From Spirochaetales bacterium (GTDB taxonomy: Bacteria > Spirochaetota > Spirochaetia > DSM-27196 > SLST01): DNA of 17,622 nt. Of the stretch, positions 7,515-17,328 are shown one piece after another (positions within the stretch are counted from its first letter, which is position 1; every line of letters starts with the position of its first letter). The position numbers and the translations under genes are program-made. Below the pieces are notes generated by a model. That model searched no databases. It saw only the letters and a program-made list of their open reading frames with translations, and had not been told where the DNA came from. The DNA is taken from assembly GCA_030642995.1 (NCBI GenBank), contig DAOWMR010000015.1, positions 1 to 17,622 on the forward strand. The letters are read 5' to 3'.

Positions 7515-8655
7515 CGTTCTGCGACTCCTTTTCACTTGATTCTTCGTCTGCCGGATTCCCGGCCCCCGGCTCTTGTAGCACCTGCTTTCCGTATGCGCTC
7601 GCTCCGAGCACCGTTCCGATGTTCATCGATTCCAGAGCGGAAGCGGGCACCAGCACCAACCCGCCCTTGTCCCGCATGCTTTCGTATATCATGTTCATGG
7701 CCCGCAGTTGCAGCGCCACCGGATCATCCCGATATTGCTCCGCAGCCTTCTTGAACGCTCCGGCAATCTCCACCTCGGCCGAACCGAGAATGATGCGAGA
7801 GCCCCGCTCCCGTTCGGCCTGTGCCTGACGGCTGAGAGCGTCCTCGAGCTCCGAGGGAATCAGGATCTCCTTGAACTCGACGGAGATGATGGTGATTCCC
7901 CATGGGTTGGTCTTGGCATCGACGATCTGCTGGATCTCGCCGCCGAGCCTTTCTCGTTCGCTGAGCAGCGTGGTCAGATCATTTGAACCAATGCTTGCCC
8001 TGAGGGCAGTTTGTGCGCTGAGCGACACCGCCTCCTCGAAGTTCTCCACTTCGAGCACGGCTTTTTGCGCGTCCCAGACCATCCAGAAAGCCAGCGCGTC
8101 TACATTCACCGGGACGGTGTCCCGCGTGAGGCTCTTCTCCGCCGAAAAGTCTGTCACCCGGATTCTCGTATCCACATAGCTGGCGGCCGAATCGATGAGC
8201 GGAAACAGGAGCAGCGCGCCGGGGCCCCGCACCTTGTGGAACTTGCCCAGCCGCAACACGATGATTTTGTCCCACTGGCTGATTACCTCCACGCCCGGCG
8301 CGATGAGAAAGCCGATTGTCAGCACGGCTGCCGCATACTGCAGATCGGTGCCGAACACTACGGGCAGCACCGCCCAGATACCGGCGATGATGGCGATAAC
8401 CATCGGCCAGTACGGCAGGATAAACAATACGGCGGCGGCTGCGATGACTCCGGCGGCCAGGTACGACGTCGTCTCGGGGTCCGGGAGCGAGGTTATCAGT
8501 GCCTGAACTCCAAGACCGAGGGCGATGAAAACCAGGATGACCAACGCCGATATGGTGTTGAATCTGAAATGCCCCCGTTGGCGTCCGTTTGGATGAGTTT
8601 TCCTCTGTGCCGTAAACAGGTTCGAGTGAGACCCAATTGCCTTTGTCATGTTCAT
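7501..8655 (-). CDS. SPFH/band-7 (stomatin/slipin-like) protein with a polytopic N-terminal membrane region
   Basis: SPFH core: IIVLRLGKFHKVRGPGALLLFPLID...VDTRIRV...TRDTVPVNVDALAFW...NPWGITIISVEFKEILIP...AQAERERGSRIILGSAEVEIA. About four hydrophobic helices precede the core. Its start overlaps the GntR stop codon (ATGA at 8652-8655). Confidence 0.9.
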   Translation of the reverse strand: MNMTKAIGSHSNLFTAQRKTHPNGRQRGHFRFNTISALVILVFIALGLGVQALITSLPDPETTSYLAAGVIAAAAVLFILPYWPMVIAIIAGIWAVLPVVFGTDLQYAAAVLTIGFLIAPGVEVISQWDKIIVLRLGKFHKVRGPGALLLFPLIDSAASYVDTRIRVTDFSAEKSLTRDTVPVNVDALAFWMVWDAQKAVLEVENFEEAVSLSAQTALRASIGSNDLTTLLSERERLGGEIQQIVDAKTNPWGITIISVEFKEILIPSELEDALSRQAQAERERGSRIILGSAEVEIAGAFKKAAEQYRDDPVALQLRAMNMIYESMRDKGGLVLVPASALESMNIGTVLGASAYGKQVLQEPGAGNPADEESSEKESQNDDQG

Positions 8656-9059
8656 GTGGTTGCATCCTCCTTGAGGATCGAGAGATACTCAGCCGCTTCA
8701 ACAACGCTGAATCCATACGAAGAAGCCGTGGCCAGGAAAGTGCGAACCAACCCCGCCAGAATCTGTTTACGTTCCTGGGCCGTAAGCTCGATTTTCTTCT
8801 CGCTGATGAAAGTGCCCGTACCCTGCTGCGTATTGACGATCCCGCGGATTTCCAGCTCGCTGTACGCCCGTGCGACGGTATTCGGGTTGATCTTCAGGTC
8901 CACCGCCAGGGCTCGCACCGTCGGCAATTGGTTTCCCGTCCGCAATCTGCCGTCGGCGATGGCCAATTGTGTCTGCATAATGATTTGCCGGTAGAAAGGA
9001 ACTCCGCTCGTCGGATCGAGGAGAAAATGAATACCGCCGGGTTGCCGTTCAGTTGTCAT
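8652..9059 (-). CDS. GntR-family transcriptional regulator, short YtrA-like subfamily
   Basis: 135 aa with a winged-HTH: PFYRQIIMQTQLAIADGRLRTGNQLPTVRALAVDLKINPNTVARAYSELEIRGIVNTQQGTGTFIS. A short C-terminal tail follows. It is the first gene of an ABC transporter operon, as in ytrA-type loci. Confidence 0.9.
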   Translation of the reverse strand: MTTERQPGGIHFLLDPTSGVPFYRQIIMQTQLAIADGRLRTGNQLPTVRALAVDLKINPNTVARAYSELEIRGIVNTQQGTGTFISEKKIELTAQERKQILAGLVRTFLATASSYGFSVVEAAEYLSILKEDATT

Positions 9060-9073
9060 AGACCGAACCCCTG

Positions 9074-9095
9074 TTGTACTGAATCGTTAGTACAA
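9074..9095. promoter_or_regulatory. Perfect inverted repeat TTGTACT-N8-AGTACAA, putative GntR/YtrA operator
   Basis: TTGTACT (9074-9080) and AGTACAA (9089-9095) are exact reverse complements. The repeat lies 15-36 nt upstream of the GntR start codon and just downstream of the candidate -10 element, which is a repressor-roadblock position. Confidence 0.6.
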
Positions 9096-9099
9096 TAGA

Positions 9100-9128
9100 A
9101 GTATAGGGCAGGTTTCGATTTACAGCAA
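9100..9128 (-). promoter_or_regulatory. Candidate sigma70-type promoter of the GntR-SPFH-ABC operon
   Basis: On the minus strand it reads TTGCTG (9128-9123), a 17-nt spacer, then TATACT (9105-9100). The call rests on a hexamer match by eye only. Confidence 0.35.
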
Positions 9129-9222
9129 GTGTATTCTGCGTGGTGGCAGCAAGGTTAAATTCGAGTACAATTTCAAGGTCTGGATGCGCAACACCGCCGG
9201 ACAATCACACAGGGAAAATCGG

Positions 9223-10137
9223 ATGGCCACGCAACGACGAACCATTGACGACACACGCAAACATCTGACGGCCAAACTGCGTCTCTACTGGAAGCTGATC
9301 AAGAGTCTCCAGACCGGATTGCTCCTTGCGACCGGCGTGGCGGGCTTCATGAGCGCCCGTTGCCCGGCTCTGGACTGGCGGACGCTACTAGGCATGTCCG
9401 GCAGCCTGTTTCTGGCGATAAGCGGCAGCACCGTTCTCAACATGTGGTACGACCGCGACATCGACGCGAAAATGCTGCGCACGTATTGGCGCCCGTTGCC
9501 ATCAGGCGGGGTCAGCCCGCGTGAGACTGTCGTGCTCGGCCTTGTGCTTTCCATACTGGGAGTGGGGTGGGCCGTAGCTATGCAACCGCTCTACGGACTC
9601 GTTGTGTTTGCCGGGCTGTTCATTGACGTCGTGGTCTACACGATCTGGCTCAAACGACGCACCGCCTGGTCCATTGTGTGGGGTGGGATCTCCGGCGGGA
9701 TGCCGATCCTGGCCGGGCGGGTGCTTGGCATTGCCGCTCTGACGGGAGTGGGGCAGATTGACCTGATCGGAGTTTTGCTGTCGCTGGGGATACTGTTCTG
9801 GATTCCCACCCACATCATGACGTTCAACATGCGCTATCATGATGACTATCAGACCGCGGGCGTGCCCACGTTCCCCTTAGCCTACAGTTTTCAGATGACG
9901 CGGGTGACTATCGCGGTGTCCAGTCTCATTGCGGCTCTGACGATGGGTGGAGCAGTAATGCTTCTCGGCATGACCTGGGGATACTTGCGGTTGCTGGCTG
10001 TGCTCAGCACAGCGCTACTCCTGATGGCCGTCTACAGCGTGGCCCGTCCTTCAGAGAAGATGAACTTTGGTCTCTTCAAGTACGCATCGATCTACATGTT
10101 GAGTCTGATGCTCTTGCTCGTCCTGGGGGCGATATGA
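9223..10137 (+). CDS. ctaB: Protoheme IX farnesyltransferase-like protein (heme O synthase, CtaB/CyoE type, UbiA superfamily)
   Basis: NMWYDRDIDAKMLRTYWRPLPSGGVSP matches the CyoE/CtaB motif N-x-x-DRDID-x-x-M-x-RT-x-x-RP. Also present are WLKRRTAWSIVWGGISGGMPILAG and FWIPTHIMTFNMRYHDDYQTAGVPTFP, the latter corresponding to the W-x-PPH...DY-x-x-AG-x-P region. The track start is ATG 9184. ATG 9223 is preferred because a candidate -10 element (TACAAT, 9166-9171) would leave almost no leader for 9184. Confidence 0.8.
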   Translation: MATQRRTIDDTRKHLTAKLRLYWKLIKSLQTGLLLATGVAGFMSARCPALDWRTLLGMSGSLFLAISGSTVLNMWYDRDIDAKMLRTYWRPLPSGGVSPRETVVLGLVLSILGVGWAVAMQPLYGLVVFAGLFIDVVVYTIWLKRRTAWSIVWGGISGGMPILAGRVLGIAALTGVGQIDLIGVLLSLGILFWIPTHIMTFNMRYHDDYQTAGVPTFPLAYSFQMTRVTIAVSSLIAALTMGGAVMLLGMTWGYLRLLAVLSTALLLMAVYSVARPSEKMNFGLFKYASIYMLSLMLLLVLGAI

Positions 10138-10739
10138 AAAAGATCTCCGTCCTTGACCGGATAGTGCTTCTGATCGTCGGAGTGTTAGCGGCCTATCAGA
10201 TAGTCGTGGGGATCGAGGGATTCTGCACGCTGACCGTCTTGTGCTACACGATCGCCTTCGGCGTGCTTATGTTCGCCGCGCTGCTGTTCATCATCTTTGG
10301 GTTTGACATCCTGGACAGCAAGCTGGTCGTCATCGTGGCTGCGACCATCCCGCTCATCTTGTCGCTGGCACTCATCGCTGAATATCTGCCGTCTGTCAGG
10401 ACGGTGTACATGGCGTTTGCCGTCGTCGGATTCGGTGCGCTTGCCGTCACCCGGTATACCGCCTCCGGTGCTGTTGCGACGGTCGTTCTGGCTACGGTAC
10501 ACGGGATCGCCGGGCTGTTGATCTTCAGCCTGCCGATCATTATTGCCGTGCAGGGAAAGACTTCGCCGGGCTTCGCGTTGGTGGGAGTCGGCGGGGCGTT
10601 AATTGGCACCGGCGGGTCGCTGCTCCTCTTCCTGAAATTGGGCAGGCCTATCCTGTCAAGAGATACGATTTTCACCGTGCTGCCCGTGTTGCTGCTGTTC
10701 ATGACGGCGGCATTCGTGGCCGGGTTGGCGATGCGGTGA
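10134..10739 (+). CDS. Hypothetical polytopic membrane protein (201 aa, about 6 TM)
   Basis: Its start overlaps the ctaB-like stop codon (ATGA at 10134-10137). It is strongly hydrophobic throughout, with coding-like codon periodicity. I recognised no family. Confidence 0.7.
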   Translation: MKKISVLDRIVLLIVGVLAAYQIVVGIEGFCTLTVLCYTIAFGVLMFAALLFIIFGFDILDSKLVVIVAATIPLILSLALIAEYLPSVRTVYMAFAVVGFGALAVTRYTASGAVATVVLATVHGIAGLLIFSLPIIIAVQGKTSPGFALVGVGGALIGTGGSLLLFLKLGRPILSRDTIFTVLPVLLLFMTAAFVAGLAMR

Positions 10740-10748
10740 GGGATTGAG

Positions 10749-11180
10749 ATGGTTGGGAATGAACGCCGGCTCTATGCACTGGCAGGGATCATGTGGAGTG
10801 GCGTCGGTGGCTACCTGGTTTTTCTGGCTTATGGTTGGCTCAAGGCGTTACCCTCATTACGTACCGTTCTTCTCGCAATCGCAGCGGTTCTATTTGCGCT
10901 GGTGATCTACCGTTTTGGCTTCTCTAATCTTGCGAAGAAGAACATCAAACGCATTTCGCTGCTCGAAGGCCGAGTATTCATCTGGGCATTTCAGAGTTGG
11001 CAAAGCTACATCATTATCCCGGTTATGATCGGTTTGGGCATCTTTCTCCGTAACTCACCGCTGCCAAAGCAGTATCTGGCCATCATGTACATCGGCATTG
11101 GTGGCGGCTTATTCTTGTCGAGCCTGCACTACTATGTTTGGCTCGTGCGACCATCTGAGTTGGAAAGGAGTGATGAGTGA
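10749..11180 (+). CDS. Hypothetical membrane protein (143 aa, about 4 TM)
   Basis: A GAGGGA-type RBS lies upstream of ATG 10749. Four hydrophobic helices are present. I recognised no family. Confidence 0.65.
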   Translation: MVGNERRLYALAGIMWSGVGGYLVFLAYGWLKALPSLRTVLLAIAAVLFALVIYRFGFSNLAKKNIKRISLLEGRVFIWAFQSWQSYIIIPVMIGLGIFLRNSPLPKQYLAIMYIGIGGGLFLSSLHYYVWLVRPSELERSDE

Positions 11181-11857
11181 TGAATACAATGGCCAAGATC
11201 TTGTGGGTGATCGCAATCATACTGATTGGACTGACGGCGGCAATAACGCTGGTGAGCGGCATCGGTACGTACTGCGTTGCCTGGAACGCCGAGCAATACG
11301 CGGAATTTGCCAACTTTGAGCCGTACAAACCGCTCTACAAGGCGATTGTCGTTCTCACGATTATGGTCGCGCTCGTTGCTGTCGTGGATGTTTATGGCAT
11401 GATACGACGCAAGAAGTGGGCGTACCTGGCCACGCTGTTCACGCTGATCGCAGGTATTGTCGTGGGTGGTACGCACGTGTATTACTCGACCATGTTGCGG
11501 GGAACCGGTATGCCGGGTACCGTCCGGGTTTATCTCTCAGTACTCACACTCGTCGTCCTGCTATTGCTGCGGATTCCCGGCATCTGGCAGGCGATCAACT
11601 CCGGGAAACCATCTGCGGGATCGGGGGCTGGAACGGCAGCCGGTCTGGCGATGAGTGTGTGTGGATTGGCCGTCGTTGCGACGCCCATGTGGGCCGGCCC
11701 GACGCATACTTCTGCCGGCTACAATTGGGTGAATGTCCTGTTGGTGCCCCTGATTGTGGGTGGCGTGGTGTTGATGCTGGCGGGGATAAGTCTGTTGGTG
11801 TTTCCCAAACTGCAAGTGCGTATCGGGAAGCGTCCCCAACCAGTCACGGCACATTAG
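11177..11857 (+). CDS. Hypothetical polytopic membrane protein (about 225 aa), sharing a C-terminal module with the proteins at 14544-15341 and 15352-16188
   Basis: AAGGAG at 11165-11170 precedes possible starts at GTG 11177 and ATG 11180. The start overlaps the upstream stop codon. It contains MIRRKKWAYLATLF...LLLLRIPGIWQAI, which resembles LKKKKWTVPLGVF...VIILLPGTQKLI in the 265-aa protein. Confidence 0.65.
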   Translation: MMNTMAKILWVIAIILIGLTAAITLVSGIGTYCVAWNAEQYAEFANFEPYKPLYKAIVVLTIMVALVAVVDVYGMIRRKKWAYLATLFTLIAGIVVGGTHVYYSTMLRGTGMPGTVRVYLSVLTLVVLLLLRIPGIWQAINSGKPSAGSGAGTAAGLAMSVCGLAVVATPMWAGPTHTSAGYNWVNVLLVPLIVGGVVLMLAGISLLVFPKLQVRIGKRPQPVTAH

Positions 11858-12819
11858 GGATTGCGAGCACAACGGAATCCAACTGCCGGACCATAGTACA
11901 CCGGCCCGGCGCTATTCTGTTTCCAGACACGCAGATCCATTTCATAGGTATAAAAACTGCCGCCGCGCATATGACGATAATGCTGGTTCGAGAAATCATC
12001 TCCAACCCACTGCCAGACATTCCCGGCCATGTCATAGAGGCCGTACGGGCTGGCCGAATCGAGTGTTTCGTAATCTTCGTAGGTGTCACCGTTGTAGAAA
12101 CCCACGGGAGTGGTATTGCCCAGCTTCCCAAACATCTTTTCGAACAAGTCGAAAGAAGAATAGGAATTGGCGTTGTTGCCATGAATTTCAGTGCCCCAGG
12201 GGAAAGGCAATCCATACCCGTCCACTAGTTTGGTACCACGAGCGGCTTTCTCCCATTCGGTATCACTGGGGAGCCGCCAACCGTAGAACTCGGCGTACGC
12301 ATTGGCGCCGAACCATGAGACCATTGTCATGGGGTGATTGGCGTATTCAGGGATTGCTGTGAATGATTGCCCATTAAAGGTCAACCGCAAGCCTTCTTCA
12401 TCCAGCGGGATGTAGAGTTTGTCCCCGGCCTTGATTTCAAACTCGTGCTTGTAACCCTGGAAAGGTTCGCCTGCATAGAAACCATACACACCTTCAAGAA
12501 CCGCAACGGATTCCCCGAACTCAACTTCCACCTCACCCACACCAATCTCGCCGGCAGCCAAAGCTTCGTTGAGAAAATCGGCATACTGTTGGTTGGTTAC
12601 GTCGGTGACCATGATCTCATAGTCGTAGTCGACCATGGTCATGTGATCGTGCTGCCCGTAGGGGAACTCACCGGCGGGAATGACAGCCCAGGAATCGGGG
12701 TCAATCCCGGTATCGATAGAGGGCGGTACAATTGCTCCGACGCTGGATGTCGGCGTACAGGCGGTTGTCAACAAAGCAAGCACCGTAAGCAAGATCATGA
12801 GATGTATCAAACGTTTCAT
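11854..12819 (-). CDS. FGE-sulfatase (SUMF1) fold lipoprotein lacking the FGE catalytic cysteine pair
   Basis: The signal peptide MKRLIHLMILLTVLALLTTAC suggests a probable lipobox with Cys21. Fold motifs are WAVIPAGEFPYG, HPMTMVSWFGANAYAEFYGWRLPSDTEWEKAARG, YGLYDMAGNVWQWV, RGGSF and GFRCARNP. The only cysteines are Cys21 and the GFRC cysteine. Its start overlaps the stop codon of the upstream 12-TM gene (ATGA at 12816-12819). Confidence 0.88.
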   Translation of the reverse strand: MKRLIHLMILLTVLALLTTACTPTSSVGAIVPPSIDTGIDPDSWAVIPAGEFPYGQHDHMTMVDYDYEIMVTDVTNQQYADFLNEALAAGEIGVGEVEVEFGESVAVLEGVYGFYAGEPFQGYKHEFEIKAGDKLYIPLDEEGLRLTFNGQSFTAIPEYANHPMTMVSWFGANAYAEFYGWRLPSDTEWEKAARGTKLVDGYGLPFPWGTEIHGNNANSYSSFDLFEKMFGKLGNTTPVGFYNGDTYEDYETLDSASPYGLYDMAGNVWQWVGDDFSNQHYRHMRGGSFYTYEMDLRVWKQNSAGPVYYGPAVGFRCARNP

Positions 12820-14357
12820 TCTGACACCCCCTTCAGGGTTTCTTCGAGTTTTTCCAGTTTTCGCTTCTGTTCTGCGATTTCAGACTCGGCGCTGAGTTTC
12901 GTCTCAGCCGCCAGTTCCTGCGCCCAGCGGCCGTTCCTGGTGAGGAGATCGTACAATCGCCACAGCATGAAGACACACAGAATGATGAGCACAACCCCCA
13001 GGCCGATATCGGTCAACAGCATGGTCCAGTTGACGATGGATTGCTGCGCAACTTCGGTGACGAAGAGGCGCTTCATCGAAAAGATAGTCACCGCGCCAAA
13101 AGCCAGATCGGACATCAGGATCAATACCCACCCGAACCATTTGCGGGCTTTGCCCTTCAGGCCCGACAGATCCGCGAAATACATCAGGATGATGGTTGCG
13201 ATCAGCGCTGCGAGGATGTGCCAGTGTCCGGTAAGGGTGACCCGTTCTTCCCGATGCGGCCAGACACGGAATATCTCCTCCAATTTGACTGCCAGAAAAA
13301 TGCCAACGCCACTGACGGTAAAATTCATGAAGACCATCTGCCAACCCGGGCCGAACTTCAACGGGTCGTGCAGGAGCGCCTTGATTTTCTGCCAGGCGTT
13401 GGGTTTTTCGATACCCAGTTCCGCGATGCGATTCTTGATTTGTTGATCCCAGGAGAAGATCACATATAGCAGGGCGGCTGTCATCACCAGGACGGACCCA
13501 ATATAGATGATGTTGTGTGCCCACGTGAACCACACAATGGACAGCGCGCCAATCGTGATCACAATTGTGCCGGAAATCATCAGCCACATGGCGATCTTGT
13601 GGAAGATCCCTTTGAACTTCATCCAGCGGCCCACAATCAATGTGAGGGCGACCGCGATCAGGGTCAGCATGATATGCAGGTGGCCTACAATGGCCTTCTG
13701 CAAAGCTGTCTTCAGGGGGATGCGGATCAGGTCTTCCGCCAGGAAGGTTTCGTGGCCGTTACCCCAATACGAGCCGGTCACCGCGCCAAAAGAAGCGGAG
13801 ATCAACGCGGCAGCAACCATCACGAAGAAGGCGGCTCGCTCCAGATCAATACCTTTCCGGGTGTGTGCGTAGGGCGAATCCTCCGGCAAGAGGTATTCCT
13901 TTTTCCAGGGCCACAACGCGGCGCCTAACAGCAAACCCGCGAAGAAGACTAACGACTGGCCAACCAGGAACAGACCGTGGTAGACGAAATTGTGGCCAAA
14001 GTAGCCAAAGATCAAGCCGAAAATGATAGCCGTCAAATAGCCGATGGTGATGGTGGTGTTGATCATGGTCTGTTCGTGTTTTTTCATCGGCACCATACCG
14101 GTGATGAAATACACTTCAATTGCCAGGATCGTCATGGCAATGGTGTGATAGAGCATGATGATTCGCCCTTCACGTTCAGCCTGAACCAAATCCATATTGA
14201 GGAGGCGGACGGTGATGTCTCTGACACCCCATTCGACCATCGGGCCGGAGAGCGTTCCCCAGACGGCGGTTGCCACCGCAACGACAGCCATTGCGACCAG
14301 CGCCAATCCCTTGGTCGAAGTGAAGAGATAGGTAAGTCGTTTTTTTAGTCCTTGCAT
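12816..14357 (-). CDS. 12-TM integral membrane protein (513 aa) with three 4-TM repeats and conserved intramembrane His motifs; candidate divergent heme-copper-oxidase-subunit-I-like protein (hypothesis)
   Basis: ATG 14357 (MQGLKKRL) has GGAGG 7 nt upstream; the track start at 14381 is a TTG. Twelve hydrophobic helices are present, and the positive-inside rule gives N-in/C-in. His motifs are YH71TIAM, GH122NFVYH127G, GH226LH228IM, AH281NIIYIG and GH378WH380IL. The C-terminal roughly 35 aa look like a coiled coil (AEQKRKLEKLEETLKG). Confidence 0.85.
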   Translation of the reverse strand: MQGLKKRLTYLFTSTKGLALVAMAVVAVATAVWGTLSGPMVEWGVRDITVRLLNMDLVQAEREGRIIMLYHTIAMTILAIEVYFITGMVPMKKHEQTMINTTITIGYLTAIIFGLIFGYFGHNFVYHGLFLVGQSLVFFAGLLLGAALWPWKKEYLLPEDSPYAHTRKGIDLERAAFFVMVAAALISASFGAVTGSYWGNGHETFLAEDLIRIPLKTALQKAIVGHLHIMLTLIAVALTLIVGRWMKFKGIFHKIAMWLMISGTIVITIGALSIVWFTWAHNIIYIGSVLVMTAALLYVIFSWDQQIKNRIAELGIEKPNAWQKIKALLHDPLKFGPGWQMVFMNFTVSGVGIFLAVKLEEIFRVWPHREERVTLTGHWHILAALIATIILMYFADLSGLKGKARKWFGWVLILMSDLAFGAVTIFSMKRLFVTEVAQQSIVNWTMLLTDIGLGVVLIILCVFMLWRLYDLLTRNGRWAQELAAETKLSAESEIAEQKRKLEKLEETLKGVSE

Positions 14358-14438
14358 ATCTATGCCTCCAAATAGGGACAAACAGTCAACTTGATTGTGA
14401 AAGGTTCCACGAAGTTATCATGAAATATCGAGAGAGTC

Positions 14439-14454
14439 CTTGACCAAGGTCAAG
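14439..14454. promoter_or_regulatory. 16-bp perfect palindrome CTTGACC-AA-GGTCAAG (core TTGAC-N4-GTCAA), putative operator/promoter element upstream of the 12-TM gene
   Basis: Both halves are exact reverse complements. The centre lies about 90 nt upstream of ATG 14357. A near-identical element occurs at 16256-16271, and a conserved gene-proximal flank (ACTCTYTCGA..ATTT) follows both copies. Confidence 0.6.
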
Positions 14455-14469
14455 TTCCAAGGAAACCAC

Positions 14470-14497
14470 CCCCTCTCCGGCAAGAACCAGAGAGGGG
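14470..14497 (-). terminator. Stem-loop, possible intrinsic terminator after the 265-aa membrane protein gene
   Basis: CCCCTCTC (14470-14477) pairs with GAGAGGGG (14490-14497) across a 12-nt loop, and two further G:C pairs are possible inside the loop. On the minus strand it is followed by GTGGTTTCCTTGG, which is only moderately T-rich. It lies between the stop codon at 14544 and the palindrome at 14439-14454. Confidence 0.35.
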
Positions 14498-14543
14498 CGA
14501 TCTCGCGGGCGAAGGCAGAAGAAGGATTTACCCTGACTTCAGA

Positions 14544-15341
14544 TCAACTTTCGTGTTCACCGGAGTCTGCAATCAGCTTCTGTGTGCCTGGCAGCAAGAT
14601 GATGACAAGAAGCACCGTGCTGATAACCGGAGCCGGCAAGAACATTGAGAATCGACCCAATTGCACCGTGTTGGTGATTCCCATCGGGTAAGCACCCATC
14701 ATGGACATCATGGCTGCAAAAACACCCAACGGCACAGTCCACTTCTTCTTCTTGAGGACAGCAAAGATGAACATTGCCCAGGCGGCGGCGCCCCACCAGG
14801 TAACTTGCTGCGACATGGCAAACATACCGTTCATGAAGCTATCGTCCACGGACAACTGGAAATAGGCAATCACGCCGACCCCGTCCATAAACGTCAAGAC
14901 ATATGCCAAACCGGCCACAAAGAGCAGGGCGATGACCTTCATTTTGACACGGCCAATCAGCAGCATACCAAACCATAGAACGGTCGCCAGCAGGAAGACC
15001 CAAATCGTGGGAAAAGGCATCCCGATGCTGGAGGGTGGGATGATCGGGAAAAAGCCGACAAGCATCTGGACGGTGGCCGCCACAGTACCCCAGAACCAGG
15101 CCCATTCCAGTTTTTTCACGAAGCCGTAGAGCACGGCCCCCCACAATGCGCCGGCAGTTATGCCCAGCCAGCCAAGCAGGGCGAAGACGATCTGAACAGT
15201 AACGGCTTCATCCGGGCGACCACCGGCAATTTTGCCCGCAATGGTCGGGTTGTAGATGTCCGCCATCAAGTAGAATGTCAGCAATCCGGTCAGGACACCG
15301 ACTATGGCGAGTACAATACCGAGCTTATTGTTTCCTTTCAT
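14544..15341 (-). CDS. Hypothetical polytopic membrane protein (265 aa), paralog of the upstream gene
   Basis: ATG 15341 (MKGNNKLG) has AGGAGA 6 nt upstream (15353-15348), and that RBS overlaps the upstream TAG stop codon. About 8 hydrophobic helices are present. It shares these motifs with the 278-aa protein: VLAIVGVL vs VLAIVIGLL; KKLEW vs KGEEW; QQVTWW vs QDFTWW; KKKKW vs KRKGW. Confidence 0.75.
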   Translation of the reverse strand: MKGNNKLGIVLAIVGVLTGLLTFYLMADIYNPTIAGKIAGGRPDEAVTVQIVFALLGWLGITAGALWGAVLYGFVKKLEWAWFWGTVAATVQMLVGFFPIIPPSSIGMPFPTIWVFLLATVLWFGMLLIGRVKMKVIALLFVAGLAYVLTFMDGVGVIAYFQLSVDDSFMNGMFAMSQQVTWWGAAAWAMFIFAVLKKKKWTVPLGVFAAMMSMMGAYPMGITNTVQLGRFSMFLPAPVISTVLLVIILLPGTQKLIADSGEHES

Positions 15342-15351
15342 GATGATTCTC

Positions 15352-16188
15352 CTATTGATCATCCTTGATCAGCTTCTTCTTGAAATACGGAACCAACGTG
15401 AAGAAAAGGACGCCGATGGACAACAGTGCACCGTAAAGATAGTCCATCGTCTTCGTGCGGATAAACTGCGTGGGGGCGTCAATCGCCAGGATGGCAACCG
15501 CAGCAATGACGGCAAACCACCAGCCTTTGCGTTTGCCGACAGCCAACAGCGGAATGGAGATGACCAGCAGGATAACCGCCACCCAGTTAACCTCACCGGC
15601 CCAGCTGAACAACCACCACGTGAAGTCCTGATACATGGGATATCCAGGGCGGGTCCACATGGTTCGCTGGGCGCCAATACCGATGGTGAAGGCGTGAGTA
15701 GCCAACATGCCGATGAAAGTCAGGGCGCCGAAACGAGTCCACTTTTGCATTCTTTCGGCCTTGCGCAGGAAAATGAAGCTCCAATAACCTACCAGACCAG
15801 TGACCGAAATCAACAGCGGGATCGGGAAGCCGTCCACCCAACTGACGTACGGGAGGAACATGAACATACCGCCAATTGCAGGCAGCGCAAACAGAGTTAC
15901 GGCAAGCGGATAGGTCCACTCTTCGCCTTTCCTGATTTCTTGTGAGATCACGATCAGGGCGGCGCCTGCGACAAAAATGACGGCTCGCCAGATCGGATAG
16001 AAGAAATCAAAGAGCGGAATCCCGCTTTCAAACGTGGGGTGACCGGCGTTGATATGATCGATCAACCCGACCAATACTCGTTCAAGCGATTTCTGGACGA
16101 TGAAAGGGACCACGCCCACCATCAACAGGCCAATAACAATGGCGAGAACCGACATGACCGTTCGGTTTTTCTGTGAAGTTTCTTTCAT
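15352..16188 (-). CDS. Hypothetical polytopic membrane protein (278 aa)
   Basis: ATG 16188 (MKETSQKN) has AGGAGA 6 nt upstream (16200-16195); the track start at 16227 has no RBS. About 8 hydrophobic helices are present. I recognised no family. Confidence 0.75.
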   Translation of the reverse strand: MKETSQKNRTVMSVLAIVIGLLMVGVVPFIVQKSLERVLVGLIDHINAGHPTFESGIPLFDFFYPIWRAVIFVAGAALIVISQEIRKGEEWTYPLAVTLFALPAIGGMFMFLPYVSWVDGFPIPLLISVTGLVGYWSFIFLRKAERMQKWTRFGALTFIGMLATHAFTIGIGAQRTMWTRPGYPMYQDFTWWLFSWAGEVNWVAVILLVISIPLLAVGKRKGWWFAVIAAVAILAIDAPTQFIRTKTMDYLYGALLSIGVLFFTLVPYFKKKLIKDDQ

Positions 16189-16255
16189 TTTCACTCTCCT
16201 AGGAAAAAAATTGCGTTCTAGTGTCATGAGAATCGCAGATAAATTCGAAAGAGTA

Positions 16256-16271
16256 ATTGACCCAGGTCAAT
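16256..16271. promoter_or_regulatory. 16-bp perfect palindrome ATTGACC-CA-GGTCAAT (core TTGAC-N4-GTCAA), second copy of the element at 14439-14454
   Basis: Both halves are exact reverse complements. The centre lies about 75 nt upstream of ATG 16188 on the minus strand. It sits in the divergent intergenic region shared with the RpiR gene. Confidence 0.6.
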
Positions 16272-16373
16272 CGCGGGGGCAGCACGATCAACGCCGACGG
16301 GCGACATCATCCCCCAAAACAGAAATAAAACTTGCAGTGATTGAGCAAGAAGAAAGAAACTTTCCAAAAATCG

Positions 16374-16403
16374 TTGACAAAGGAATATTTCGGTACCCAT
16401 AAT
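16374..16403 (+). promoter_or_regulatory. Candidate sigma70 promoter for the RpiR-family regulator gene
   Basis: TTGACA (16374-16379), an 18-nt spacer, then CATAAT (16398-16403). The -10 element overlaps the track's ATG at 16402, which argues that the real start is ATG 16438. Confidence 0.5.
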
Positions 16404-16437
16404 GGGAAACACCGAAAGAGAACGGGAAGGAACCGAA

Positions 16438-17328
16438 ATGATAACAAAATCAGACAGCTATCATCAGATCATTGAAGTATATGACGATCTGTCTAGACAG
16501 CAGAAGAAGATTGCTGATGGGATCATCAATCGGTGCGACGAGATCGTCTTCTTTTCAATTACCCAGCTCGCGAATTTTCTCGGGGTGAGCGAAGCTACGA
16601 TTGTCCGGTTTGCTCAGCATCTGGGGCACAAGGGCTTCCCCGAACTGAAGGAAGACCTGGTGAAGTACTACCGGGAATATCTTACTCCCGGGGCACGGAT
16701 GAGACGATCCATTGAAGAATTCCCCGATGACCCTCTTCTGTATAAGAGCCATGCGGCACGTGAGATACAGCTGCTGGAGGAATCGCTCCAGGCAGTTGAC
16801 AACGATAGTTTTGTTCAAGCTGTTGAAGCGATCGTTCAGGCCGAGCGGATATTTCTTTTCGGTAACGGAGGGAATGAATGCCTTGCCAATCATCTCACCT
16901 TTCGTCTCTCCCGTTTCAAGTTGAAAGCCATACAGCAATCCGTTTCGGGAAAAAATCTCTTTGAAAAATTCCTGCAGATAGAAAAGAGCGATCTCATAAT
17001 CGCCTATCATTTCTATAAACCAACAATAGACTTCAGGCGGCTCATGGAGGTGAGTGCTGAACGGGAGGTTCCTGTTCTCCTCATGACTGATTCCCTCGTG
17101 CCGCCGATGATTCGTCACGCCAAAATCGTTCTTTTTGCTCCGAGGGGCTCAGCCGGGACCTTCCATTCTCAGGTTGTCCCAATGGCCATCAACAACGCCC
17201 TGATAAATGGCGTAGCCAGCAAGCTCGGGAACAAGGCTGTGAAGGCATTACAGGAGTTGAGTGATATGAGGCAAAAACATTATTTCAGTGACTTTTCCTC
17301 ACTGATATCACATGAAAACGATCAATGA
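16438..17328 (+). CDS. RpiR/MurR-family transcriptional regulator (HTH_6 plus SIS domain)
   Basis: The N-terminal HTH reads LSRQQKKIADGIINRCDEIVFFSITQLANFLGVSEATIVRFAQHLGHKGFPELKEDL. The SIS-like part includes ERIFLFGNGGNECLANHLTFRLSRFK. ATG 16438 follows GGGAAGGA. Confidence 0.9.
   Translation: MITKSDSYHQIIEVYDDLSRQQKKIADGIINRCDEIVFFSITQLANFLGVSEATIVRFAQHLGHKGFPELKEDLVKYYREYLTPGARMRRSIEEFPDDPLLYKSHAAREIQLLEESLQAVDNDSFVQAVEAIVQAERIFLFGNGGNECLANHLTFRLSRFKLKAIQQSVSGKNLFEKFLQIEKSDLIIAYHFYKPTIDFRRLMEVSAEREVPVLLMTDSLVPPMIRHAKIVLFAPRGSAGTFHSQVVPMAINNALINGVASKLGNKAVKALQELSDMRQKHYFSDFSSLISHENDQ

Follow-up and report, generated by a model that had tools for sequence, protein, structure and literature searches.

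Two conserved palindromes as predicted CRP/FNR-type activator sites upstream of a haem-copper-oxidase-like membrane gene cluster

Two palindromes with the core TTGAC-N4-GTCAA, each upstream of one transcription unit of a membrane gene cluster, are probably class II CRP/FNR-type activator sites through which both units would be co-induced. They lie on a stretch of 17,622 nucleotides (the window), and comparison with 80 related Anaerolineales loci identifies them, at the level of sequence, as the form that a promoter element conserved throughout Anaerolineales takes in the window genome. The same comparison shows that the element is non-random and positionally conserved, and that it stands at a fixed distance from a conserved putative extended -10.

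Both units are read from the reverse strand. The first gene of unit 1 (12816..14357) encodes a membrane protein of 513 aa and 12 helices, folded like the catalytic subunit of a haem-copper oxidoreductase, and its stop is overlapped by 4 bp by the start of the second gene (11854..12819), which encodes an FGE-sulfatase-domain lipoprotein (Pfam PF03781, E = 2e-36). The FGE gene lies downstream of the 513-aa gene in 80/80 loci, and the two are fused in P0122. Unit 2 begins with the gene for a 278-aa membrane protein (15352..16188), followed by that for a 265-aa membrane protein (14544..15341), for which neither Pfam nor NCBIfam gave a match. In 26 related loci the 265-aa gene is likewise downstream of the 278-aa gene, either adjacent or at most about 3 kb away. 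The start codons used here, ATG 14357 for the 513-aa gene and ATG 16188 for the 278-aa gene, match the gene calls on the identical public contig.

Box 1 (14439..14454, reverse strand; CTTGACCTTGGTCAAG on the gene strand) is the predicted CRP/FNR-type dimer site of the 513-aa gene promoter, and box 2 (16256..16271, reverse strand; ATTGACCTGGGTCAAT on the gene strand) that of the promoter of the 278-aa/265-aa unit. The original prediction described both as perfect 7+2+7 palindromes about 90 and 75 nt upstream of their genes; the symmetry is exact in each (CTTGACCAAGGTCAAG at 14439-14454, ATTGACCCAGGTCAAT at 16256-16271), and the box centres are 90 and 76 nt from the respective start codons. FNR-type boxes consist of two inverted 5-bp half-sites 4 bp apart (TTGAn-N4-nTCAA). 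The CRP/FNR geometry proposed for the palindromes is found in both cores, at 14440-14453 (TTGACCAAGGTCAA) and 16257-16270 (TTGACCCAGGTCAA), and the core is kept in orthologous promoters. The motif TTGACCNNGGTCAA has two exact matches in the whole window, compared with none in 200 dinucleotide-preserving shuffles, and when up to two mismatches are allowed the sole extra match, at 12629, falls inside the FGE-sulfatase coding sequence. These are thus the only copies in the window, as had been judged by eye, and no other TT(G/A)-N8-(C/T)AA box with good symmetry is present there. As a separate matter, a hairpin reading of the palindromes was rejected because a 2-nt loop cannot form.

The shared flank noted earlier is also real. 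The spacer block ACTCTCTCGA of promoter 1 (14437->14428, reverse strand) and its counterpart ACTCTTTCGA in promoter 2 (16254->16245, reverse strand) have the same offset from the box and are identical at 9/10 positions without gaps. Within this spacer the pattern A.T.T...G is invariant in eight clade sequences, and its conservation is absent in distant relatives. The claim of an identical 6-bp half-site holds for the two window boxes and breaks down in the closest relatives, where the box variants (TTGACTTAGGTCAA, TTGACGTCGGTCAA, TTGACCGGGGTCAA and TTGATCTTGGTCAA) differ at positions 6 and 9 and retain TTGA(C/T)...GTCAA. Because this inner C/G pair varies in the closest genomes, the real half-site is 5 bp and not 6, and the shared sixth base pair is partly an accident of the window genome.

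In the 80 related loci an exact search with TTGACCNNGGTCAA gave no match beyond copies of the same contig, and relaxed and anchored motifs were therefore used. The module [TTG-N8-CAA]-N18-20-[TGnTAnnnT] occurs 77 times in the related loci and the window, against a mean of 5.65 (maximum 9) in local shuffles. Of these copies, 52 precede homologues of the 513-aa gene, and another 15 precede genes homologous to the 278-, 303-, 290- or 265-aa genes. The module is found almost only upstream of the 513-aa and 278/265-aa group homologues, the spacer being 19 in almost every case; in related loci it also stands before multihaem cytochrome c genes and before the CRP/FNR genes. When 44 loci were aligned on the box and GAC alone, TG (93%/91%), TA (98%/93%) and T (98%) appeared at fixed offsets, so that TGnTAnnnT at box offsets +34 to +42 is 91-98% conserved. 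The three closest genomes retain both boxes, in which TTGA(C/T)-N4-GTCAA is invariant and the centre drifts; orthologues of box 1 occupy the same place in L089, L088, L003/L083 and L084, and those of box 2 are TTGACTTAGGTCAA in L089 and TTGACGTCGGTCAA in L088. Distant relatives often have a degenerate promoter-proximal half (AATAA) in the box of the 513-aa gene. A metagenome scan with the box plus the shared spacer (TTGACNNNNGTCAANNACTYTNYCGA) gave 27 matches, all on unrelated contigs without any homologue of the cluster genes, and yielded no extra regulon members.

The promoters themselves appear to be built around the extended -10. In promoter 1 a weak -35 remnant, AGGACT (14435..14440, reverse strand), abuts the box and includes a GAC conserved among relatives: after the box of M513-type modules (n=47), G16 is found in 45/47, A17 in 44/47 and C18 in 47/47. 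The remnant, assigned by its spacing, is 17 nt from the predicted -10 hexamer. The predicted extended -10 elements, TGATAACTT (TG-n-TAACTT; 14412..14420, reverse strand) and TGCGATTCT (TG-n-GATTCT; 16229..16237, reverse strand), both lie 19 nt past the box. The TGATAAC of promoter 1 is identical in L089 and L088, whereas promoter 2 keeps the TG, at an offset equal to that of promoter 1, with a weak hexamer, GATTCT; its counterparts are TGCGATTGT in L089, TGAGATTCT in L088 and TGTGATAnnTTTCACA in more distant M278 promoters. Transcription would start near 14405 from promoter 1 and near 16222 from promoter 2. The box centre is 29.5 bp upstream of the conserved extended -10, and the succession of GAC after the box, 17 nt and the extended -10 therefore places that centre at about -41.5, a figure that rests on the predicted -10 and would correspond to the class II CRP/FNR activator position. 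Activation by FNR takes place mostly from about -41.5 (PMC3688515).

Between the 265-aa gene stop and box 1 a strong hairpin is predicted (14457..14508, reverse strand; minimum free energy -40.6 kcal/mol, z = -3.5, with 0/200 shuffles equally stable), and similar G+C-rich hairpins are found upstream of the box in relatives. It is likely to be a terminator or insulator between the two units. A riboswitch or other known RNA in the leaders is unlikely, since an Rfam search of the window gave no match.

Under the proposed mechanism each palindrome would be bound by a homodimeric transcription factor of the CRP/FNR family, from a subgroup without the FNR iron-sulfur cysteine motif and with an E-x-x-C/S-R recognition helix. 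The most likely subtype has the helix T-S-P-E-V-V-C-R-L-L-Y-Q, and its gene would lie outside the window. The promoter would be of the housekeeping-sigma type, with the site centred some 41.5 bp before its transcription start, and its -35 is only a remnant (GAC / TAC), making it dependent on the extended -10 (TG-n-TAACTT; TG-n-GATTCT). Because of this position, the remnant -35 and the extended -10, the bound dimer is expected to contact RNA polymerase and activate by a class II mechanism, co-inducing the 278-aa and 265-aa membrane genes together with the haem-copper-oxidase-like 513-aa gene and its FGE-domain partner. We infer activation rather than repression, and likewise the identity of the regulator in the window genome. 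Anr, Dnr and FixK control cbb3 oxidases and NO reductases; by analogy, the signal perceived here is probably redox, O2 or NO status.

Gene and family searches agree with the original prediction that the window holds no CRP/FNR gene. In relatives such genes are plentiful (54 ORFs in 38/80 loci), are often divergent from the first membrane gene, and often occupy the spot that an RpiR-family gene holds in the window. Their products carry recognition helices of the E-x-x-(C/S/A)-R type. Regulators with PEVVCR adjoin TTGAC..GTCAA boxes in L045, L047, L062 and L087, with a variant in L006, and those with REMVCR adjoin TTGC.TTAA.GCAA boxes, so that recognition helix and box sequence co-vary across genomes. 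This co-variation, the conserved module and the CRP/FNR genes adjoining the cluster in relatives all speak for the earlier proposal that one dimeric factor governs the two units. A hunt for the regulator returned the PEVVCR-type proteins P0287, P0300 and P0317, all of which belong to other MAGs. FNR proper uses an N-terminal Cys-X2-Cys-X5-Cys and a central Cys as ligands of a [4Fe-4S] cluster. The PEVVCR-type regulators, as found in relatives, have no Cys in the first 40 residues and two to four in total; the FNR-proper motif is absent from them, and they would therefore not be Fe-S oxygen sensors of the FNR type.

A different promoter had been suggested originally, with TTGACC as the -35 and GATATT or GAATTT, 18 nt downstream, as the -10. 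If the distal half of the palindrome were indeed the true -35, the palindrome could be a repressor operator at which a dimer, of the CRP/FNR or another family, excludes RNA polymerase. A consensus scan does return TTGACC-18-GATATT at site 1 with 9/12 matches, a formally possible promoter, and the katA paper describes an Anr box centred at -29 that overlaps the -35 (PMC4974557). However, at site 2 a direct reading of GAATTT matches TATAAT at just 2/6 positions, and the hexamer is not conserved: identity at box offsets +25 to +30 is 39-68%, with GTACTT in L088 and TGGTAG in L003, while conservation resides instead in the TG-n-TA-nnn-T 19 nt past the box (91-98%). The distal half is moreover TTGCC or TTGTC in most relatives, which is a poorer -35. 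Repression from this site is thus unlikely, and the suggested -35/-10 pair is not upheld. Another register of the palindrome, G.CTTT-N4-AAAG.C, is well retained in the 513-aa modules of distant relatives, and could mean that a dimeric regulator of some other family binds while the nearby CRP/FNR genes regulate something else. We consider this quite improbable, as the register fails at window site 2 (GACCTG vs AATTAC) and also in boxes of the 278-aa type, whose symmetry is perfect as TTG-N8-CAA (e.g. TTGCCTTAAGGCAA); the co-variation of helix and box falls in the CRP/FNR register, and CRP/FNR genes themselves carry the module.

The divergent RpiR-family regulator (16438-17328), offered in the original prediction as a candidate to bind both palindromes and control the membrane cluster, is recommended by proximity only: it has HTH_6 and SIS domains and lies on the opposite strand, 167 bp (16271-16437) from box 2. 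Its homologues occur in 0/80 related loci, and box 2 persists in the two closest genomes (L088 and L089), where its upstream neighbour is a GGDEF gene or an unrelated one. It also has a near-consensus promoter of its own, TTGACA-18-CATAAT (16374-16403), overlapped by a different inverted repeat, TTTCGGT...ACCGAAA (16388-16417), and the gene that follows it reads, judging from its translated sequence, as a TIM barrel of the sugar-phosphate isomerase/epimerase type. By locus comparison the element is shown to be associated in relatives with CRP/FNR genes and not with RpiR, and control by this RpiR protein is highly improbable. A CRP/FNR-family activator remains the preferred reading.

The expectation of respiratory-type targets is supported by the main target, the 513-aa protein, which has a cbb3/NOR-like fold with the 12 helices of a subunit I. 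By sequence it stands apart: it has no Pfam or NCBIfam match, a profile of its family found 0 matches among PDB sequences at E up to 10, Pfam detected nothing but the FGE fusion in distant family members, and no description of the family was found in the literature. Canonically, the six His ligands of haem-copper enzymes are distributed as single residues in helices II and VI, an HH pair in helix VII and an HxH motif in helix X. The invariant H71 in the second long helix and H378-W-H380 in the tenth fit these positions; the sixth helix carries H226-L-H228, and an HH pair was not seen in the seventh. It is possible, and we put this forward tentatively as a whole, that the haem-copper oxidoreductase superfamily has an as yet undescribed branch, orphan by sequence, whose regulon the boxes mark. 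Such a branch would be about 75% identical across Anaerolineales, with a non-canonical His active site (HxH in helix 6, no HH pair in helix 7), an obligatory FGE-like and possibly copper-dependent lipoprotein partner that is fused in some genomes, and further partners among UbiA prenyltransferase, NapH-like ferredoxin and CopD-like genes. It would be controlled by a few non-Fe-S paralogues of the CRP/FNR family that have radiated so that each has a box subtype of its own; in the window genome a rewiring would have brought both promoters to one subtype.

Anaerolineales are widespread and rarely cultured, and the box, -35 remnant and extended -10 together provide a testable promoter model for them. 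The model unites a set of orphan membrane proteins in a single respiration-like module under common control. Of greater interest than the box is the target, a highly conserved protein whose fold is of the cbb3/NOR type and for which no sequence family can be detected; should it prove to be a working oxidoreductase, a new branch would be added to the haem-copper superfamily, and the boxes would reveal the conditions under which it is induced.

Among known systems, the window boxes resemble those of FNR, Anr, FixK and Dnr (TTGAT-N4-ATCAA and variants) in beginning with TTGA, ending with TCAA and having a 4-bp gap; the Anr consensus is given as TTGac-N4-gtCAA (PMC4974557). As in the class II promoters of those regulators the -35 is poor, with an inferred box centre near -41.5 in the window, and the cbb3/NOR-like fold of the target recalls their respiratory targets (cbb3 oxidase, NO reductase). 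In relatives, CRP/FNR regulators with an E-x-x-(S/C)-R helix are encoded alongside, and their own genes carry the box. Unlike FNR, these regulators do not have the N-terminal cysteine motif; unlike the FNR/Anr/FixK/Dnr group, the promoters have a TRTG-type extended -10, and a single cluster is served by several regulator paralogues that differ in box subtype (TTGAC..GTCAA vs TTGC.TTAA.GCAA). Class II promoters of CRP (TGTGA-N6-TCACA) share the protein family and the predicted activation geometry, and in distant relatives a TGTGATA-N2-TTTCACA palindrome overlaps the -10 of 278-aa promoters; the window boxes are nevertheless of the TTGAC and not the TGTGA type, and what is left of the TGTGA palindrome here is the decayed TGCGATTCTCATGACA. 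With RpiR/MurR/HexR-family operators the arrangement has in common a palindrome next to a divergent regulator gene, but only in the window genome is RpiR the neighbour, and the box is retained where RpiR is absent. We know of no CRP/FNR-type regulon characterised in Anaerolineales (Chloroflexota). The element is of a known kind, a probable CRP/FNR-type class II promoter of respiratory-type genes, in a new lineage.

Perfect 16-bp palindromes are present at 14439-14454 and 16256-16271, exactly where the original prediction placed them. The sequence TTGACCNNGGTCAA occurs twice in the 17.6 kb window and in 0 of 200 dinucleotide-preserving shuffles, and its sole near match in the window falls within coding sequence. 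An identical public contig (from the Anaerolineales MAG GCA_030642045.1) carries gene calls that place the minus-strand starts at 16188 for the 278-aa gene, 15341 for the 265-aa gene, 14357 for the 513-aa gene and 12819 for the FGE-sulfatase domain gene. These calls fix the distance from box centre to first gene start at 76 nt (278-aa gene) and 90 nt (513-aa gene). Between the stop of the 265-aa gene and the box at 14439-14454 lies a hairpin of high stability (-40.6 kcal/mol, z = -3.5), which supports the two separate transcription units that had been proposed. The conserved flank claimed for both boxes is also borne out, with ACTCTCTCGA and ACTCTTTCGA at an identical offset from their respective boxes. 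Both promoters share the spacer block ACTCT(C/T)TCGA (14428-14437, 16245-16254), whose A.T.T...G positions are invariant in 8 clade sequences (alignment A3) and not kept in distant relatives. Such sharing could stem from one promoter having been copied onto the other, or from a second contact specific to the clade.

Homologues of the 513-aa protein number in the thousands at ~75% identity, nearly all of them from Anaerolineales MAGs, and the family forms only 294 clusters at 50% identity. In 80 genomic loci surrounding these homologues, the 513-aa gene is followed in conserved order by the genes for the FGE-domain protein, the UbiA prenyltransferase and small membrane proteins; the 278-aa and 265-aa genes are usually found some kb upstream, with NapH-like ferredoxin and CopD-like genes intervening. 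The FGE-sulfatase-domain lipoprotein gene (11854-12819, minus strand) has a start overlapping the 513-aa gene stop by 4 bp and follows that gene in 80/80 loci, and one family member (P0122, 785 aa) fuses the two, which suggests that the encoded proteins act together. In relatives (L004-L082), UbiA and three small membrane genes come after the FGE gene and share its strand. In the window (9184-11857, plus strand) this block is inverted and converges on the FGE gene, so the cluster has been rearranged in this genome. A small GntR (YtrA-like) regulator gene (8652-9183) is first in an operon with Band-7 protein and ABC-2 transporter genes, and a TGTACT...AGTACA palindrome in the intergenic stretch towards UbiA is probably the regulator's own operator. 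All relatives are Chloroflexota except L003 (JAHOYX010000112.1), which carries the label Spirochaetales; its 513-aa protein is 88% identical, among the closest recovered, and the contig is probably mis-binned.

The closest contigs (L089, L088, L003/L083 and L084; encoded proteins 83-93% identical) carry orthologous promoters. The 278-aa gene box reads TTGACCTGGGTCAA in the window, TTGACTTAGGTCAA in L089 and TTGACGTCGGTCAA in L088, and the 513-aa gene box reads TTGACCTTGGTCAA in the window, TTGACCGGGGTCAA in L089, TTGATCTTGGTCAA in L088, TTGATCTCAGTCAA in L003/L083 and TTACTTTTTGTCAA in L084. Their invariant core is TTGA(C/T)-N4-GTCAA; five base pairs of the 6-bp half-site described previously are thus retained, and the sixth is unconstrained. 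This 5+4+5 layout is that of FNR-type boxes, as had been recognised, and the Anr box consensus is given as TTGac-N4-gtCAA (PMC4974557).

The exact palindrome is absent from the 80 related loci. The module [TT(G/A)-N8-(C/T)AA]-N18-20-[TG-n-TA-nnn-T] has 77 occurrences, where local shuffles gave 5.65 (maximum 9); 52 copies sit 68-216 nt ahead of 513-aa homologues and 15 precede homologues of 278-, 303-, 290- or 265-aa membrane genes, with 19 nt between box and extended -10 in nearly all modules. When a control alignment is anchored solely on TT-N10-AA-n-GAC, leaving the -10 unconditioned, the downstream TG (93%, 91%), TA (98%, 93%) and T (98%) appear at fixed offsets. Of 47 modules, 45, 44 and 47 respectively have the G, A and C of the GAC right after the box, and this triplet behaves as a remnant -35, lying 17 nt from the TAnnnT hexamer. 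The predicted layout is therefore box, weak -35, 17 nt and extended -10, with the box centre ~41.5 bp ahead of the putative transcription start. Site 1 of the window matches exactly (TTGACCTTGGTCAA-N19-TGATAACTT), and site 2 retains the TG and spacing with a weaker hexamer (TGCGATTCT). More distant relatives bear different box subtypes at their 278-aa and 513-aa promoters, while in the window clade both are of the TTGAC..GTCAA subtype with a similar spacer, suggesting that one subtype took over both.

Two further patterns accompany these promoters. A register G.CTTT-N4-AAAG.C, 3 bp off that of TTG-N8-CAA, is well kept in the 513-aa modules of distant relatives (44-47 loci), and may have a separate meaning or merely represent box plus -35. 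The CRP-like palindrome TGTGATA-N2-TTTCACA (TGTGA-N6-TCACA) overlaps the -10 upstream of 278-aa homologues in more distant relatives (L013, L019, L035, L040, L047, L051, L052, L066, L070) and has decayed in the window (16221-16237) to TGCGATTCTCATGACAC; a second CRP-family paralogue could bind this palindrome.

Phylogenetic footprinting, synteny and regulator-box co-variation support reading the boxes as CRP/FNR sites, as originally inferred. CRP/FNR-family ORFs (cNMP_binding + HTH_Crp_2) number 54 across 38/80 loci, and the window itself, as noted before, holds none. Their recognition helices follow the FNR-type pattern E-x-x-(C/S/A)-R and co-vary with box subtype: (S/T)(S/T)PEVVCR regulators adjoin TTGACAATTGTCAA, TTGACCTAAGTCAA and CTTGACTTTGGTCAAG, with one variant adjoining TTAACCTGGGTTAA, and (S/T)TREMVCR regulators adjoin TTGC(C/T/G)TTAA(A/C/G)GCAA. 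In at least 10 loci the CRP/FNR gene is divergent from the first membrane gene, the slot held in the window by RpiR, which had been suggested as an alternative regulator by proximity. RpiR is rejected as the binder: 0/80 related loci encode a homologue, and in the two closest genomes the box persists although the gene ahead of the 278-aa gene is a GGDEF gene (L088) or an unrelated one (L089). The RpiR gene, whose true start is probably the ATG at 16438, is preceded by a near-consensus promoter of its own (TTGACA-18-CATAAT, 16374-16403), overlapped by a TTTCGGT-N16-ACCGAAA inverted repeat (16388-16417) that bears no relation to the TTGACC boxes and is a candidate auto-operator.

Most activation by FNR is from positions near -41.5 (PMC3688515), and the best-supported model is that a CRP/FNR-family dimer at the predicted box would drive class II activation. 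A minority repressor model instead takes TTGACC as the -35 and GATATT as the -10, a pairing already pointed out; a consensus scan recovers this promoter at site 1, but site 2 matches it poorly and the GATATT position is not conserved in relatives. Beyond the membrane genes, the box-plus-extended -10 module of relatives is also found ahead of genes for multihaem cytochromes c and for CRP/FNR proteins (L016, ~4858, minus strand, L025, ~3864, and L032, ~3008; L012, L025, L032 and L053), an indication of a broader, autoregulated respiratory regulon.

The box element itself is of a known kind, and the orphan oxidase-like cluster around it is the more novel lead. Sequence methods, including Pfam and NCBIfam searches, link the 513-aa protein to no known family, and a fold search with the 278-aa protein gave no informative match. 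The AlphaFold model of the 513-aa protein (pLDDT 71, pTM 0.74), with its top four Foldseek matches in agreement, predicts a cbb3/NOR-like fold. Of the histidines that are invariant in the family, one falls in the second long helix and two form an H-W-H in the tenth, which matches haem-copper oxidases, but the pattern departs from that expected for a CuB site. The PEVVCR-type regulators of relatives, in which no N-terminal cysteine motif was seen, look more like Dnr, NnrR and FixK than like Fe-S FNR. In proteobacteria, FNR-type boxes classically govern cbb3/NOR-like targets, and the predicted fold would fit the respiratory control expected at the outset.
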